Origin: Bacillota bacterium
GTDB taxonomy: Bacteria; Bacillota; Clostridia; Acetivibrionales; DTU013
Direction of reading: 5' to 3'
Length of the DNA stretch: 64,000 nucleotides
Assembly: GCA_023439545.1 (NCBI GenBank)
Contig: JAEXNT010000011.1
Location: 139,659-203,658, forward strand
The notes under the pieces are model-generated. The model was not told where the DNA came from. It did no database searches and saw nothing but the letters and a program-made list of their open reading frames with translations. Each line of letters opens with the position of its first letter. Within the stretch, counting starts at the first letter, position 1. Made by a program: the position numbers and the translations under genes. Shown piece by piece: positions 51,574-64,000 of the stretch.

Positions 51574-51622
51574 TGGCTGCGGGAGAAGGATTTGAACCCT
51601 CACAGACTGATCCAGAGTCAGA
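51574..51622 (-). tRNA. Truncated tRNA: 3' portion only (anticodon arm to CCA), anticodon loop CUCUGGA, so CUG (Gln-like)
   Basis: The T arm (gaggg-ttcaaat-ccttc), the acceptor 3' strand tcccgca, the discriminator G and CCA are all present. No D arm or 5' acceptor strand lies upstream. Confidence 0.7.
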
Positions 51623-51849: not shown

Positions 51850-52347
51850 TTACTTGTAAGCACTAATAATCTTAATTATTTGCTCTTTACTCAATGTATC
51901 ATATCTGCCGTACTTTCTCCATTCGTTTAGCATTGGCAAGTATTTATAAAGCCTATTACTGTGACTATTTATTTCTACATCCTTAAACTCAGAAAACCTT
52001 CCCAAATCCTCTAAATAGAAGCAGGCAAAAATGAAATGTTCTGTTTCTTCATTACCATCAAATCCTTGAAATATTACATTATCTTTATCTATACCGGTTT
52101 TGTCGCTTAACTCGTGATAAGATCCATATAATGATCTATACATTTGTAAAATATCAATAACCTCTTTACATATGTCTATAGGAATCCCATCTGACATAAA
52201 TTCAACCAGAGAATCATACTCAATTTCAAAGCCTTCTGCTAATATTTTTTGGGCATTTTGACATTCTTTTTCTTCCTCAGGATATAACTTTTCAAGTATC
52301 CGATATTGGTTAAATAAAATAAGTCTTTCTTTTTCATTTAATTCCAT
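51850..52347 (-). CDS. YfbU-family protein
   Basis: MELNEKERLILFNQYRIL... parallels E. coli YfbU (MEMTNAQRLILSNQY). ATG 52347 lies 9 nt after GGGAG. Confidence 0.75.
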   Translation of the reverse strand: MELNEKERLILFNQYRILEKLYPEEEKECQNAQKILAEGFEIEYDSLVEFMSDGIPIDICKEVIDILQMYRSLYGSYHELSDKTGIDKDNVIFQGFDGNEETEHFIFACFYLEDLGRFSEFKDVEINSHSNRLYKYLPMLNEWRKYGRYDTLSKEQIIKIISAYK

Positions 52348-52462
52348 ATGTATCATCTCCCTTTATAAACTATATTCTACAAAAGTAAACATAACCCTGC
52401 ATAAATAGATAATTAATTAGCAATTGTGGTTAATTCAGTGAAACCAAAAACTGACATTCAAT

Positions 52463-53292: not shown

Positions 53293-53844
53293 CTAGCGGA
53301 AGAGGGTATCCAACCCGGACATATCCAGACCCACAATTTTAAATTTAACGCCTATTTGGGGCAATTTTAGCGGCCTATCAGTGCAAATGATTACAATAGG
53401 TCGGACACCGAATACAGGCAGAAAGTCCATTTTATATTTGTCAAAGTCAAACTGATTGCTGAGATGTACCTCGACCAAAACGGGATAAACCACACCTTTA
53501 TTTCGTATATATGTGAGAGCATCCGGCCGGATATGATCGATTGTAAATTCATTATGCCATTCCAGGATCTCATATATCTGTTTCATAGTTGCATACAGTT
53601 CGGCGCGGATAAGATCATGGTGCAGCTGCTGCAGAAGAGATTTACGCTCCAGATAGTAGGCAAAATCATTATTAATCGTACTCCGGGTACGCTTGACAAA
53701 TCCCTGTTCCGTCAATTTCTGCAACCGGCTCCGGCTATTGCGCGTGATAGTCTCTGCAAAATAAAGTCGGTGAATTTGTGAAGAAGTGGCTACGTGGAAT
53801 TCCTCAAGGAAATTTAAAATATTCTGATCTCGCGTTGTTATCAT
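53293..53844 (-). CDS. Replication-relaxation family protein
   Basis: MITTRDQNILNFLEEFHVATSSQIHRLYF is a Replic_Relax-type N-terminal wHTH. ATGA overlap with the ftsK-like stop. Confidence 0.75.
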   Translation of the reverse strand: MITTRDQNILNFLEEFHVATSSQIHRLYFAETITRNSRSRLQKLTEQGFVKRTRSTINNDFAYYLERKSLLQQLHHDLIRAELYATMKQIYEILEWHNEFTIDHIRPDALTYIRNKGVVYPVLVEVHLSNQFDFDKYKMDFLPVFGVRPIVIICTDRPLKLPQIGVKFKIVGLDMSGLDTLFR

Positions 53845-55082
53845 TTCATCACCTTCTTCAAATACGGATTGATACACTTGCCACGCAATACCTTCATTTT
53901 GGCACGTTTTTCAGATTGGATTTCCTCTGTGGTTTTAAAGGCATTATGCTTTATCAAGATCGATCGTACGTCGTCTGGCTCAATATAAAGGCACTGGACT
54001 TCCTTTATTTCACCGTTGTATTTTATCAGACAGCGGCCCTTATTCTTTATCTGCTCTGCTCCGGCGACGTTTAGTATGACTTCACTGTCCACGTCTGTAA
54101 CGACTTTAAAGGCTAGGCGTGTAGGCATGCAACCTTTAGTACTTCCTGAGATAATTTTTATATCAGGTCTTTGCATGGATACAAGATATAATAAGCCCAC
54201 TTTTCTATCCAGAGCGACACGGACGCGGAATTTATCGAGCAATCCTTCGCTATCGGATATCCGGGAAAACTCGTCTATGATAATAACCTTATAGGGCAAT
54301 GCCTTGCTGGGGTAAAACTTATTCCACACGGCTAGATTTTGAACAAAGCGCTTTTTACGTACGCTGGTAAATAGCTTCAGCCTCCTGTCACTTTCCTGCT
54401 CCATTTCGTCAAGCAACTGTCCGAAGTCCTCCGGTTTCTCACCATATGACCGGACCTTTTTGCAGTCTTGGAAAATACCCAGTTCGACACCCTGGAAGTC
54501 AATCAGGTGCAGATCAATATTATGCCTGCTCAAAATCAGTGACAATATGATCGTTCGTAGGAAGGAGGACTTGCCGGACTTTGGTTCCCCGGCTACGATG
54601 GTTTGTATAGCATCGTCGATGTCGAAATAAAACTTGCCTTCATGAGTATATCCAATAAATACCTCTGTGGGATCCTCGCAGTCCTCGAATTCATATTTGT
54701 AATTCGCCCCGAGGTTCATCTGTGTCAGCTTCATTACAAGGTTTTTATTGAATCCATATTCCACCTTGCAGTTCAAAGCCTGCTCTATTTCCTGCTGCCG
54801 CTGCTCAAAATGCTTCTGCGATATCCCTTCGGGCATATGTATAACAAGGGTATCTTTATCATGCTTTATTACGAGCGGTATCTTATCATCACAAGATTTT
54901 ATCCCGCACTTACGGAACAGTGTTTCAAACCTGTTTTCATGGAGCAGAGCCAATTCGATTCCTGTTATCAAGGCCCCTCCCGCAAGCATCGCAAGAGTAG
55001 TTACTCCCGGCATAAGTATTTGACCTATGCCGCCTATACCCATCAGTATAAGCCCGCCGCCTGTCTTTCCATATCTATCCAT
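53841..55082 (-). CDS. FtsK/SpoIIIE-family DNA translocase (membrane anchored)
   Basis: Walker A GEPKSGKSS, Walker B VIIIDEF, N-terminal TM helices. ATG 55082 lies 6 nt after GGAGG. Confidence 0.88.
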   Translation of the reverse strand: MDRYGKTGGGLILMGIGGIGQILMPGVTTLAMLAGGALITGIELALLHENRFETLFRKCGIKSCDDKIPLVIKHDKDTLVIHMPEGISQKHFEQRQQEIEQALNCKVEYGFNKNLVMKLTQMNLGANYKYEFEDCEDPTEVFIGYTHEGKFYFDIDDAIQTIVAGEPKSGKSSFLRTIILSLILSRHNIDLHLIDFQGVELGIFQDCKKVRSYGEKPEDFGQLLDEMEQESDRRLKLFTSVRKKRFVQNLAVWNKFYPSKALPYKVIIIDEFSRISDSEGLLDKFRVRVALDRKVGLLYLVSMQRPDIKIISGSTKGCMPTRLAFKVVTDVDSEVILNVAGAEQIKNKGRCLIKYNGEIKEVQCLYIEPDDVRSILIKHNAFKTTEEIQSEKRAKMKVLRGKCINPYLKKVMK

Positions 55083-55103
55083 CACACACCTCCGTCCGCG
55101 CCC

Positions 55104-55132
55104 CCGCCTGCTCCACCCTGCTCCGCAGGCGG
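55104..55132. promoter_or_regulatory. GC-rich inverted repeat in the ftsK-like 5' leader (candidate oriT or regulatory hairpin)
   Basis: ccgcctgc-N13-gcaggcgg sits inside an ~80-nt GC-rich patch in otherwise AT-rich DNA. Confidence 0.35.
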
Positions 55133-55223
55133 CACTCCGTGGCTCCCATGAACTTGCTTTTTGCAATGTTTAGTAAAATTACCGCTTGGAAGTCTTATAG
55201 ACTTGCATATCCGTAAAGCCGTT

Positions 55224-58384: not shown

Positions 58385-58942
58385 ATGAATCTTAGTCAGA
58401 TGAAAGAAATTGAAGACTTAAAAGCTCAATTAAGTGCTTCAAGAGATGAATATAGTAAAATATACCAACCTAAAAAGCAAAAGGCTTATAATGAAGTAGT
58501 AAATGGGTTTAAGACATATTTTAAAAATCAAGGTTTCGAAATTCAGGAGACCTCATCATTTGTATATGCAATTTATCGTGATATTAAATTTTCATTAAGC
58601 TTACCGGGAACTGATACAAGCTTTGTTGGCGCTGCTTCAGTATTCAATTTATCTGAGGAGCATAACAAAATAGATAAGCATTCGATAATGATTATTCAAA
58701 AAGGACATAGAACCGGAATACATATTACTTCATCTATATCTCCAAAAACTGAAGATGAAAAATATAAACAAGAAGTTGAAAGTCTAAAAAATAGCATTGA
58801 AGATTCCAAAAAAAACATAGAAGCTATGAAAGATGATGTACTGGTTTTTGGATTAAGGATAGATAATAATAGATCAGGCAGAGAATATGAACAATTTAAT
58901 TCTATGAATGACCTTATTGAACATTTATTTGAATCAAAATAA
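58385..58942 (+). CDS. Hypothetical coiled-coil protein, 185 aa; the only plus-strand gene in the element
   Basis: AAAGGAG RBS. Very AT-rich. An upstream hairpin with T run lies at about 58250-58292. Confidence 0.6.
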   Translation: MNLSQMKEIEDLKAQLSASRDEYSKIYQPKKQKAYNEVVNGFKTYFKNQGFEIQETSSFVYAIYRDIKFSLSLPGTDTSFVGAASVFNLSEEHNKIDKHSIMIIQKGHRTGIHITSSISPKTEDEKYKQEVESLKNSIEDSKKNIEAMKDDVLVFGLRIDNNRSGREYEQFNSMNDLIEHLFESK

Positions 58943-60013: not shown

Positions 60014-60997
60014 TTACCCGAATTCTGCAATAACGTTAGAAAGCCCTCTTACATCCGCATCGGTATAGTCGACAATGCCTCTGAAATAAGTCGTACAGTC
60101 GATGTACAGGCCACATCCACCGCCGCTCCAAACCTCCGTTCCTGGGCCATGTCCAGCTTCAGCAAAAAACTTCACTGTCAACGCGTTTCCATGCCAACCA
60201 TTCGAGTACCAGCCGCCAATAGTTATACCGCTTTCAAGCACGGGATCACTGCCTGGATTGACATTGAACATACCACCGTTGAATGAACCGGAATAAACAC
60301 CGTTTTGGTTTATATACGTCGCGTAACCGCTGTTCCTCCATGCCGCTAAAGAAGCGCCCAGCGGGACATACAACTTCTCGTTGAAGGTTTTAGGCTCAGT
60401 TTTGTCCTTGATCAGACGGTGATCAATCAAAGCAATGCCCCGCCTGTCAACCTGGAAAACTGTCATGAAGCCACCAACGGCTTCACACGCCACAGATTCA
60501 TAAGCTTGCAGGAAAAGTTGTTCTAGCGGCATGGTGTTAATATTTTGTTCGATAAAATGTCCGACCTCGGAAGTCGCCATTCCCTCCACCCGCGCTCCAT
60601 CATACCAGAACATGACAGCAAAATCATCATTCGAATTCATGCTGCAGCACACTGGAGCATTACGGGTGTTGTCATAATAGAATATCGCTAGATTGCATAT
60701 AAATGCATTTGCAGGATCAGCGATGTTATTGCCCTGGCAGAAAGCCTTTACTTTGCTTCTGGCTATCCCCTGAAGAGCTTCAATCGTATCGTTGTCCTGA
60801 TGCGCAAATTCAAAAATTACTGCTGCTCCTACCGCTTCAATGCCTGCCGAAAATATCAAACGGCTATGCACGACATGGAGCTTTTGGCCGTCGTCGCCGA
60901 GTCTGCGAAATTCACCATTGGCACACAATGACCTACGGGAATCGGAGGCCACGAATAGTGGGCCTGTATTTGAATAAATGGAAATACAACAACTCAT
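60014..60997 (-). CDS. Two-domain protein: N-terminal proteasome-beta/HslV-like Ntn-hydrolase fold (Cys in place of Thr1) plus a Gly/Trp-rich C-terminal domain
   Basis: By-eye alignment of CCISIYSNTGPLFVASDSRRS...QKL...SAGIEAVGAAV to [21 protein letters not shown]...RKV...GIAGTAAVAV. Not verified by a profile search. Confidence 0.5.
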   Translation of the reverse strand: MSCCISIYSNTGPLFVASDSRRSLCANGEFRRLGDDGQKLHVVHSRLIFSAGIEAVGAAVIFEFAHQDNDTIEALQGIARSKVKAFCQGNNIADPANAFICNLAIFYYDNTRNAPVCCSMNSNDDFAVMFWYDGARVEGMATSEVGHFIEQNINTMPLEQLFLQAYESVACEAVGGFMTVFQVDRRGIALIDHRLIKDKTEPKTFNEKLYVPLGASLAAWRNSGYATYINQNGVYSGSFNGGMFNVNPGSDPVLESGITIGGWYSNGWHGNALTVKFFAEAGHGPGTEVWSGGGCGLYIDCTTYFRGIVDYTDADVRGLSNVIAEFG

Positions 60998-61535: not shown

Positions 61536-62969
61536 TTATTCCAACTTATAGCTTATTTCCGTCCAATCATGCTCCGGATCCTGCGCGACGTTGCCCACGG
61601 AAAGCCAGTCCTGATATGTGGGACCCCCGATAATACAGGCAACTCCGTTACGTTTACGGAACATTTCCTCAAGGAATAGATTGCTTTTTACCTGCCAGAA
61701 TCTTTGAGGATTGCAGTAATATGCAAAATGTCCGCCACGTTCGCTTTTATAACCCCCATAGACGATTGTGATTTTGCTTCCTCCTTCAGTTTTTTTGCAG
61801 ACAGCACCATCCTCTACTAGCCTTTCAAGTACGCGTGGACTAAGTCCTTCGATATCAAGCCGCCCAGTGTTCCGACATATTTTTAGCTTTATTCCTGGTG
61901 CCGAAGTCGGCTTCGCTTCTGTCGGTGCCCGCCAATTATCCGCAAATTTCATTATTTCAGCAGTTTGCATATCGGTAAACATGAAGCGCATTTGAAGTTC
62001 AGGAAAACTTGCTCCGAGAGCCTTTTTCCCCGCGGCGAGGGCCGATTCAATGATTTTCTGTCTCTCAAAGGGGTCTTCTACCTTCTTTTGAGGTTCTGTC
62101 TTGGGTGCGGGGACTGTGCCGGGGGTGAAGACCTTCCTGCGGTCTGACTTTTTCACCATGGTCAGCAATCCTACATTCGGACTATAAGTGGCTATAACGG
62201 GTTTTGCAGGATCTATATTCTTCAAGTCAGTTACTACCATAAATTCTCCATGGTCATTCTCTACAGTATCCCTAGCAGACATTGACATGACGCCAGCGCC
62301 GGGATAAGCTCCATCAAAGACAATACTATTTTCCCAAAGTGCGGCTGGTGGGTATGCTTTTATCCAGCATAGAGAATCCTTTTCATTCCCGGCAGTATCC
62401 TTGACCTTGTAGGTTTGGCCGGCATAGTGTTCGCAGTCGCGACTTGTGTACTCCTCACCACACACAGAACATATGCCCCGATTAAAACTGAAACCTATAG
62501 ATGTATCAAATAGCGTCCCGGCCTCGATACCTGCAATAAGGTCATCTGTATTTATACCGTCGATTTCCACGCCGCGTTTAATGTAAGTGTCGCTCAAAAG
62601 AGAAACCGTTTCGCCTTCCTCAGTAGGTTCTCCAAAACATGCATCAAAGGTTCTTCCATAGGGGATAGCAGGTTTCGGACGACCGCCTAAACCAAACAGC
62701 CCTCCCGAATGCCAGGAGTGGTCTATCAGGAAGGATACGCCTTTTCTTGCATCCATAGCGAACACATCAAGCGTCTCTCTCATTAGCTGGACATACCGCT
62801 CGGGGATTATCATATCTCCAGTTAATTTTGATGGGAACACGAATACTTCATCGGCGGTCAGCCTACGTTTCGCAAGCTTATTGATTTTTTCAAGTTGTGC
62901 TGTGGTCGGTACACCGAATTCACCCAATTCAATCATCCTTTCCTTTTGGGCGTTCGCCCAAATCTTCAT
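61536..62969 (-). CDS. Prohead-serine-protease-like protein (HK97/XkdF type) with Cys/His insertion, linker and extra C-terminal domain
   Basis: LIDHS (His), DTSIGF (Ser) and LWENSIVFDGAYPGAGV follow the Peptidase_S78-type order. CSVC...CEH...C cluster. Start uncertain (ATG 62969 or 62936). Confidence 0.6.
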   Translation of the reverse strand: MKIWANAQKERMIELGEFGVPTTAQLEKINKLAKRRLTADEVFVFPSKLTGDMIIPERYVQLMRETLDVFAMDARKGVSFLIDHSWHSGGLFGLGGRPKPAIPYGRTFDACFGEPTEEGETVSLLSDTYIKRGVEIDGINTDDLIAGIEAGTLFDTSIGFSFNRGICSVCGEEYTSRDCEHYAGQTYKVKDTAGNEKDSLCWIKAYPPAALWENSIVFDGAYPGAGVMSMSARDTVENDHGEFMVVTDLKNIDPAKPVIATYSPNVGLLTMVKKSDRRKVFTPGTVPAPKTEPQKKVEDPFERQKIIESALAAGKKALGASFPELQMRFMFTDMQTAEIMKFADNWRAPTEAKPTSAPGIKLKICRNTGRLDIEGLSPRVLERLVEDGAVCKKTEGGSKITIVYGGYKSERGGHFAYYCNPQRFWQVKSNLFLEEMFRKRNGVACIIGGPTYQDWLSVGNVAQDPEHDWTEISYKLE

Positions 62970-62984
62970 TTATTTTGCTTTGCT

Positions 62985-63296
62985 TTACTTTCCCGAGTAT
63001 TCCATATCATGCCACTCACGCAGCCCATGCCTATCAAGTTCGTTGGTAGAGAACATGTCATAGATTGTGCAATTAAGTTGGCCGTTTGGCCATATCCCTG
63101 GATAGTCCTGGTTAAACAGAGTACACAGTGTAGGGTTGGGTGTTACGGAGAACGTCGCTAGATTTGCATAGTACTTTACCCCATTTCCGGCCTCGCCTCG
63201 GGCTATAATACCTTCATTTACGAATTCTTGAAGCTGCGTCTCGCTCAAACCTCCAGTATCCAGCCTGCCGGATCTTTTACATATTCTGAAAATCAT
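62985..63296 (-). CDS. Hypothetical protein, 103 aa, sharing a motif with the C-terminal domain of the 477-aa protein
   Basis: ICKRSGRLDTGGLSETQLQEFVNEGII compared with ICRNTGRLDIEGLSPRVLERLVEDGAV. Confidence 0.6.
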   Translation of the reverse strand: MIFRICKRSGRLDTGGLSETQLQEFVNEGIIARGEAGNGVKYYANLATFSVTPNPTLCTLFNQDYPGIWPNGQLNCTIYDMFSTNELDRHGLREWHDMEYSGK

Positions 63297-63712
63297 AACG
63301 CTTTCTCGCTTTCAGTTAACATTTTTGCAAACTCTTCAAACCAATCACAAAAACTTTCCGTGTCCTTTTCAAAAATTAAAATGAGAATATCATCAGCCGG
63401 CTTGACTAAATCGTTGTCAAATGTCCTTCCCTTGATTAATTCGTCGATGCTTTTGTTGTCTCTATTATCTCTGTAAAACTCTAGAAAGCCCTGAAAAATC
63501 AGTGAAAACGGTACATCATCAAAGTCGCCATAGTTCACCATATCCGTGAAATATCTATGGTTATGGTTGCCTAAGAACATAATTGATAGATCCTCTGGCT
63601 CAATAACACAATTATCCTTGAATTTCCTGATCTCTTCTGGGGTCATAGAAACAGCGTGCGGCAACCGGGCCAGTTTCATCTCTTTGAATTGTTTGTCCAT
63701 CTTATTTCTCAT
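63293..63712 (-). CDS. Hypothetical protein, 139 aa
   Basis: ATGA overlap with the downstream gene. No family recognised. Confidence 0.55.
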   Translation of the reverse strand: MRNKMDKQFKEMKLARLPHAVSMTPEEIRKFKDNCVIEPEDLSIMFLGNHNHRYFTDMVNYGDFDDVPFSLIFQGFLEFYRDNRDNKSIDELIKGRTFDNDLVKPADDILILIFEKDTESFCDWFEEFAKMLTESEKAL

Positions 63713-64000
63713 CCTCTCTCATCCATTCCAACATCGATTTTATCTTTCTGCAGTCTTCTAAATTGATCTGGACTATAGTGATCATTTTTTGTAATGCTCT
63801 ATCGCGGCAACAATTTAAGGCTCGTGGGCTACATTTCAGTTCCTGGGCTATTACTTTCCACGTCTTATAGTGGAAATATTTCTGTTCAATCAGTAAACGC
63901 TCTTGCCGGTGTAATGCTCTGACTCCGATATCGATTTTCATGATTATAGCACTGACCAGCAAAATATCTTGCTGTATTTTTTCAATTTCTTCTGTAATCC
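63702..64000 (-). CDS. Sigma-70 region-4 / ArpU-like transcriptional regulator (5' end outside window)
   Basis: ERLLIEQKYFHYKTWKVIAQELKCSPRALNCCRDRALQKM is a region-4 HTH pattern. The frame stays open to the window edge. Confidence 0.6.
   Translation of the reverse strand, partial: ITEEIEKIQQDILLVSAIIMKIDIGVRALHRQERLLIEQKYFHYKTWKVIAQELKCSPRALNCCRDRALQKMITIVQINLEDCRKIKSMLEWMREDEK

Follow-up and report, generated by a model that had tools for sequence, protein, structure and literature searches.

Satellites change the capsid size of their helper phages by several routes, namely small scaffold mimics (CpmB, Rcm), external scaffolds (Sid, TcaP) and a copy of the capsid protein (Ccm); others, the capsid-forming phage-inducible chromosomal islands (cf-PICIs), bring a whole capsid module. 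In phage P2, the protein gpO joins an N-terminal serine protease to a C-terminal scaffold, and the satellite P4 exploits gpO through Sid, an external scaffold. Here we describe a gene in a 64,000-nucleotide stretch of a metagenome-assembled genome from an uncultured member of the Clostridia (contig JAEXNT010000011.1; the whole stretch is called the window below) that encodes a homologue of a phage prohead protease-scaffold protein, lies in a small integrase-bearing element and is remodelled in its scaffold half. We assign a probability of about one half to the reading that this protein family normally serves a group of Clostridia siphophages as a two-part head-assembly protein, a protease with a scaffold-like half, and that the element is a PICI-like satellite which would use its altered copy of the helper protein to hijack capsid assembly. 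The phage versions of the family appear to share the architecture of gpO. P4, however, has the external scaffold Sid and not a copy of gpO, whereas the element in the window has a copy of the protease-scaffold protein itself.

SaPI1 CpmB and SaPIpT1028 Rcm are satellite-encoded scaffold mimics that are related to the helper scaffold, compete with it and alter capsid size (PMC12409344; its ref. 18, Dearborn 2017). Like them, the window gene is an element-borne homologue of a scaffold-bearing helper protein and is altered in length; CpmB and Rcm, however, are small and helical and contain no protease, whereas the window protein keeps the whole protease domain with its catalytic residues and has an element-specific domain in place of the original C-terminus. 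SaPIbov5 Ccm, a satellite-encoded homologue of the capsid protein that redirects assembly (PMC5052747), is likewise a diverged satellite copy of a helper head gene, but it copies the capsid protein and not the protease/scaffold. The cf-PICIs, which are integrative satellites, encode a head maturation protease as part of a complete capsid module (10.1101/2022.09.08.507074); their genes cover capsid, portal, connector and packaging proteins, whereas the window element has only the protease/scaffold and no capsid, portal or head-tail connector genes of its own. If our reading is correct, a satellite that keeps only the protease-scaffold of its helper, edited in the scaffold half, represents a further strategy.

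The protease-scaffold family and its place in phages

The gene and the parts of its product are as follows. Residue numbers refer to the 477-amino-acid (aa) product counted from the first ATG, p103 is the 103-aa protein encoded directly upstream, and pLDDT is the predicted local distance difference test score of the AlphaFold model.

61536 to 62969, minus strand: the open reading frame (ORF) under study, a prohead-protease/scaffold homologue, 477 aa counted from the first ATG
62145 to 62927, minus strand: protease domain, residues ~15-275, with His84, Asp155, Ser157 and Glu213; pLDDT above 90 for residues 20-215
62367 to 62471, minus strand: Cys/His cluster C167-x2-C170-x8-C179-x-H181...C201, a putative zinc site, inserted relative to HK97 gp4
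62073 to 62144, minus strand: Pro/Lys-rich linker, residues 276-299, of low pLDDT, at the site of the ~110 missing scaffold residues
61917 to 62072, minus strand: three-helix remnant of the phage scaffold half, residues 300-351, which aligns with the phage AIAMGVRAMGNDFP...TWE block; pLDDT ~87-95
61539 to 61898, minus strand: C-terminal domain, residues ~358-477, a p103 paralogue in place of the conserved phage tail

The probable true start is the ATG at 62936 (Met12), which gives a protein of 466 aa. This ATG is preceded by AAGGAAAGG, the first ATG has no Shine-Dalgarno-like sequence, gene callers picked the 62936 start (P0001, 466 aa), and homologues begin at the same point. The motifs that a sequence-only reading of this DNA had quoted, LIDH(84)S as the His block, DTS(157)IGF as the Ser block, LWENSIVFDGAYPGAGV as the C-terminal block and the Cys/His cluster, are all present and conserved in an alignment of 129 non-identical family sequences. 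H84, D155, S157, C167, C179, H181 and E213 are each invariant in 129 of 129, C170 is found in 127 and C201 in 128. Since these positions are invariant or nearly so across the alignment, the pattern is real and under constraint. The linker, the helical segment (well modelled, as listed) and the extra C-terminal domain that the same reading had described were likewise found.

The N-terminal ~270 aa are supported as a diverged prohead serine protease of the S78/HK97 type, as had been proposed, although the Pfam comparison suggested for checking this failed: Peptidase_S78 and S78_2 gave no match at E<=1 to the window protein or to any of 69 family members, and the window protein did not reach the gathering score of PF04586 or PF14550. 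Searches of NCBIfam and of PDB sequences returned nothing relevant, Foldseek of the model found no match among solved structures, and the PHROG matches were to two families of unknown function, phrog_16951 (3.8e-19) and phrog_37798 (8.7e-15). The identification comes instead from four independent lines: an intermediate relative, HK97 gp4, predicted structures and phage synteny. A tblastn search of phage genomes found the 'head maturation protease' of Enterococcus phage fHoEfm07, to which the family profile aligns over 337 columns (hhalign probability 99.3%, E 1.8e-20), and this protease exceeds the Pfam Peptidase_S78 gathering score (23.7 versus 21 bits). The direct match of the family profile to HK97 gp4 is weak (hhalign, E 0.05), and both this match and a six-sequence alignment place gp4 His65 and Ser114, which we take to be its catalytic residues, on His84 and Ser157 of the window protein. 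The AlphaFold model matched BFVD models annotated as prohead or capsid maturation proteases, at best with E 2.6e-11, a TM score of 0.63 and 29% identity. A chorismate mutase match (E 0.002) that spans the linker and the helices was judged spurious.

Compared with HK97 gp4 and Peptidase_S78, which have a herpesvirus assemblin-like fold, the family shows the same order of His and Ser blocks, and its gene likewise sits between portal and capsid genes. It differs in the lack of a direct Pfam match, in the added Cys/His insertion and in the long scaffold-like C-terminal half fused to the protease; the window copy differs further in having no capsid context. Relative to gp4, the insertion adds ~30 residues after the Ser block and before the E-x-S block. 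Distant homologues in Brevibacillus phage Jenst and Flavonifractor phage Cormatin have the cluster too, and the fHoEfm07 protease lacks it, which makes the cluster a trait of the clade and no peculiarity of the window protein. The Cys3His(+Cys) arrangement is probably a structural metal site. The insertion claimed by the sequence-only reading is therefore real, but as a family-wide feature it is not what makes this gene special; the unusual part is the host element together with the remodelled scaffold half.

A protein search for the family returned 424 clusters, all 'hypothetical' and without Pfam domains, in which the N-terminal ~270 aa are kept and the C-terminal halves are more variable. 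Genomic contexts were fetched for 83 viral and genome loci, 58 metagenome loci and several single look-ups, and neighbours were classified with hidden Markov models (HMMs) and phmmer searches built from the family's own neighbour proteins. Where flanking sequence exists, the order is terminase, portal, family gene, a ~135-aa protein and major capsid protein (~145 loci), and a scan of genome contigs for the family gave three loci, all phage-type. The question whether homologues elsewhere are linked to capsid genes is thus answered positively. In representative phage loci the portal belongs to phrog_3753, the capsid protein to phrog_3922 and also to Pfam Phage_capsid_4, and the ~135-aa post-protease protein to phrog_4588, a 'virion structural protein'. 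At the most diverged loci the capsid protein, or both it and the ~135-aa protein, went undetected, and one locus (L087) had no recognised neighbour at all.

No separate scaffold gene was seen in the portal-to-capsid block of the phage loci, and the helical C-terminal half of the phage versions is therefore likely to be an internal scaffold, judged by its position and helicity. Phage versions end in a conserved tail (...IPDEAFKVGK) and range from 389 to 600 aa. Members of a large phage family so far called 'hypothetical' can thus be annotated as fusions of prohead protease and scaffold in which a putative metal site is conserved. At one phage locus (L002, 8853-9815), the portal and protease-scaffold genes are separated by an inserted gene for a LAGLIDADG-type homing endonuclease, and extra ORFs occupy this position in other phage loci too.

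A remodelled copy in a small mobile element

The window gene is one of two family members found in small elements. The second element, on contig L003, carries a homologue of 389 aa (P0007). In an alignment with the closest phage relatives, a central stretch of ~110 residues in the scaffold half is missing from both element copies, at the same place. P0007 still has the ~100 C-terminal residues with the conserved phage tail; of the scaffold half, the window copy keeps only the three-helix block of residues 300-351, and its phage tail is swapped for a ~120-aa domain related to p103. By BLAST, this domain shares 27-32% identity with p103 proteins (E 1e-8 to 2e-10), and it matches the p103 profile with E 7.9e-42, a profile that included the same domain. 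The 'extra domain' is, judged by its sequence, a second copy of the neighbouring p103 gene, a kinship that the sequence-only reading had missed, as it had the satellite-like look of the element. An exhaustive profile search of 1.84 billion representatives found about seven real clusters of the p103 family, and the window protein was the sole fusion among them.

The genes around the window copy form a tight late operon, in the order p139, p103, protease-scaffold, p135, p327 and terminator, within a host element of ~17.7 kb between its candidate ends. A contig of identical sequence (L001; zero mismatches across a 12,465-nt overlap) reaches 8.9 kb past the window end. The features of the element that lie within the window are:

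63702 to 64000, minus strand: gene of a 177-aa RinA/DUF722/sigma-region-4-like activator, of which only the 3' part falls within the window; its homologues in L003 and L093 match DUF722/Sigma70_r4
63293 to 63712, minus strand: p139, a small acidic protein, whose stop overlaps the p103 start
62985 to 63296, minus strand: p103, a 103-aa element-specific protein directly upstream of the protease-scaffold gene; 44-47% identical to proteins at the same position in L003, L093 and L097
61105 to 61530, minus strand: p135, an element-specific protein directly downstream of the protease-scaffold gene (gene-caller start 61512); homologues in L003, L093 and L097 are 27-31% identical
60014 to 60997, minus strand: p327, the last gene of the operon, tail-fibre-like in its N-terminal ~210 aa
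59969 to 60000, minus strand: terminator-like hairpin that closes the operon (13-bp stem and T run)
53293 to 55166, minus strand: FtsK/SpoIIIE-like and Replic_Relax genes in the right arm of the element (FtsK_SpoIIIE 3e-14, Replic_Relax 2.5e-9)
51574 to 51601, minus strand: candidate right end of the element, a string like the 3' half of a tRNA that ends in TCTCCCGCAGCCA; the 13-mer recurs beside the integrase gene outside the window, and GC content drops there

In order of transcription, the element in L001 begins with two genes on the opposite strand, one for a tyrosine integrase (422 aa, Phage_integrase) and one for a 265-aa product, which face small helix-turn-helix (HTH) genes. A primase zinc-ribbon protein (Zn_ribbon_DnaG), an AAA_25/DnaB_C helicase and a 92-aa gene follow, and then the activator. 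Locus L092, too, has the integrase, primase zinc-ribbon, helicase and activator genes upstream, and neither there nor in L001 was a portal, capsid or terminase gene found. Four to six TAGTC-containing repeats with 9-bp spacing lie in the 3' end of the helicase gene (L001 8075-8124, ~0.8 kb past the window end) and look like the iterons of a replication origin.

HMMs of the family's own portal, capsid and post-protease proteins matched nothing in the 64-kb window, in the 8.9 kb past its end or in L003, and terminase queries matched nothing in the window, L001 or L003. The absence of a capsid context, first noted from the sequenced flank, is thus borne out; in particular, L001 shows no portal and capsid genes directly upstream beyond the window, the arrangement that was to count against a protease without capsid context.

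In L003, the core order is a DUF722/sigma-like activator, p103 (44% identical), the protease homologue (56%) and a p135 homologue (27%), so that the protease gene again travels with the same small genes, as the sequence-only reading had suggested checking. The integrase of L003 is 36% identical to that of the window element and its replication genes are of other types (Lin1244_N, DnaA/IstB-like), while the layout of integrase and divergent regulators is common to L001, L003 and L093. A search with the p103 family found four more proteins, on contigs L093-L097 and in the same type of element. In L093, L095 and L097, p103 is followed directly by a p135 homologue with no protease gene between them, which identifies the window gene as a capture. 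Neither p103 nor p135 has a counterpart in any phage locus searched, and searches of metagenome and viral contigs with either protein gave no further elements. The L093 contig (1-14978) has a 127-nt terminal overlap and therefore assembles as a 14,851-bp circle, which may be the excised or packaged form of a protease-less sister element.

Within the protease domain, the L003 copy shares 86% identity with a phage copy (P0021), the window copy no more than 72% with any phage copy, and the element copies 67% with each other. The element copies are thus closer to phage copies than to one another, which points to separate captures or to repeated exchange with phages. Other virion genes are present as well. 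The sister elements share with the phage group a gene of 94-97 aa (116 aa as called in L097), whose homologues lie directly upstream of the portal gene in 23 phage loci, and they carry a 571-623-aa Prophage_tail gene (Tal-like minor tail, phrog_3475). These Tal-like and pre-portal-type genes are located as follows:

L003, 9056-11225
L093, 10664-12668
L097, 2034-4112

The sister elements appear to gather individual virion genes from a single phage group. Together with the window element they would make up a hitherto undescribed group of satellite-like elements from uncultured Clostridia, in which the genes picked up are the protease/scaffold, the pre-portal gene, the Tal-like gene and a fibre-like gene.

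Proposed capsid hijacking and the alternatives

We infer a PICI-like satellite anatomy from the integrase with its divergent regulators, the primase/helicase module with iteron-like repeats as a putative origin, the late activator, a size of 15-18 kb (~17.7 kb for the window element and 14,851 bp for the L093 circle, within the ~10-20 kb of such satellites) and the lack of capsid, portal, terminase and lysis genes. This anatomy, and the altered helper head genes carried by known satellites (CpmB, Rcm, Ccm, cf-PICIs), led us to propose the hijacking of capsid assembly. When a helper phage of the same group develops, the element's activator would switch on the late operon, and the variant protease-scaffold would enter helper procapsids in competition with the helper's own protein. 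Its shorter scaffold and different anchoring domain could then produce small capsids or derail the maturation of helper capsids. Small capsids would suit a genome of 15-18 kb, and the retained catalytic His and Ser could let the variant mature such capsids itself. As a rough estimate, phage contigs of the group are ~36-39 kb and a T=4 shell has ~0.43 of the capacity of a T=7 shell, giving ~16 kb, near the 14.9-17.7 kb of the elements.

We advance only tentatively a more specific version, in which the satellite both sizes and matures its own small capsids from helper coat protein by means of a catalytically competent, shortened and p103-re-anchored protease-scaffold, and in which the conjugative module adds a second route of transfer.

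Several observations weigh against the proposed hijacking. No small terminase (terS) or other packaging gene was recognised in the element, where the protease/scaffold copy is a candidate gene for morphogenesis, no phage copy more than 72% identical to the window gene was found, and the links to a helper phage are indirect, namely genes shared with one phage group. The protease gene occurs in only two element lineages, and the p103 family is very small. That the C-terminal half is a scaffold is argued from position and helicity only, and since phage copies themselves vary in length, a short scaffold is not unique to the elements. The p103 model (pLDDT 76) has no significant structural match in the PDB, with non-significant, winged-helix-like partial matches at E>0.6. 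Evidence for attachment sites consists of a 13-bp direct repeat, of which about one match is expected by chance, and no island-free version of the locus (empty site) was found. Lastly, the FtsK and Replic_Relax genes suggest conjugative mobilisation, instead of or besides phage-mediated transfer.

The intact catalytic residues, the loss of the conserved and putatively capsid-targeting tail from the window copy and the lack of a recognised packaging gene would also fit pure interference, in which the protein, as a poison subunit or as a protease active at the wrong time, stops helper capsids from maturing and so protects the host population and the element; interference with helpers is common among satellites (PMC12409344, PMC10945586). 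The L003 copy, however, retains the phage-type C-terminal tail, the tail genes of the sister elements and the satellite-sized L093 circle fit spread in particles, and PADLOC found no defence-system match, and we consider interference as the sole function rather unlikely. Mobilisation raises a different question. With FtsK/SpoIIIE and Replic_Relax, the window element has the relaxase and coupling protein by which integrative mobilisable elements are recognised, and it may combine satellite and conjugative-mobilisation features. It might instead be a mobilisable or conjugative island and no satellite, with a protease that processes p103, p135 and p327 for a purpose unrelated to capsids, as the fusion of a p103 domain to the protease could suggest. 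Yet the transfer module is absent from L003, L093 and L097, and it looks inserted, lying between homologues of two genes that are adjacent in L097; the other late genes are related to phage virions (Tal-like, pre-portal, the tail-fibre-like p327), and a scaffold remnant has been retained. These points make an island without a capsid-related role improbable.

A single head gene with a truncated scaffold half is also what a decaying prophage might leave of a degraded head module, with no current role. Against such decay, the ORF is intact and keeps all seven fully invariant positions, the gene is part of a tight operon closed by a terminator, the neighbouring p103 and p135 have no counterpart in the phage loci searched and are conserved in four elements, the same arrangement recurs in a second element with a 36%-identical integrase, and no remnants of portal, capsid or post-protease genes were found. 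With ORF and operon intact, the flanking genes element-specific and conserved, and the arrangement recurrent, we regard a prophage remnant as very unlikely. Several late proteins lack detectable homologues, which would allow for a tiny virus-like element, autonomous or capsid-forming, with a capsid protein (such as p327 or p135) that has diverged beyond recognition. This seems hardly credible, as the family's capsid and portal HMMs match nothing, no terminase is present, the N-terminus of p327 resembles a tail fibre and not a capsid protein, and L093 and L003 have no capsid-sized ORF besides the tail protein.

Neighbouring genes and minor observations

The last gene of the operon, p327, forms a one-member cluster in a collection of 15 billion proteins and has no Pfam, PHROG or PDB match. 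Over its N-terminal ~210 aa it is similar to the N-terminal part of a 'putative tail fiber protein' of 881 aa from Psychrobacillus phage Perkons (ORF185; tblastn E 3e-5), and p327 may be a tail fibre or adaptor encoded by the element. Comparison with phage capsid and post-protease families ruled out p327 and p135 as members of either. For p139 as a distant paralogue of p135 there was a weak signal only (hhalign E 0.005).

At the candidate right end, the string GAGGGTTCAAATCCTTCTCCCGCAGCCA (51574-51601, minus strand) looks like the T-arm, acceptor and CCA 3' end of a tRNA, and its last 13 nt are those that recur beside the integrase gene; no tRNA, tmRNA or Rfam family was called at the island border. 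The last island gene before a host TrmB-like regulator encodes a YfbU-domain protein (51850-52356, minus strand; Pfam E 2.7e-41). On the opposite strand, in the stretch of lowest GC content (33%), lies a gene for a 185-aa coiled-coil-like protein (58385-58942, plus strand) that matches Pfam Phage_scaffold below threshold (E 0.0065; 16.9 bits, cut-off 35). Outside the window, beyond the integrase gene, L001 1-3600 is a low-GC stretch that carries an HTH gene and two genes for products of 275 aa and 253 aa; these are preceded, in DNA of normal GC content, by a Peptidase_M15 gene. This stretch may be a second island or the end of a prophage that adjoins the element.

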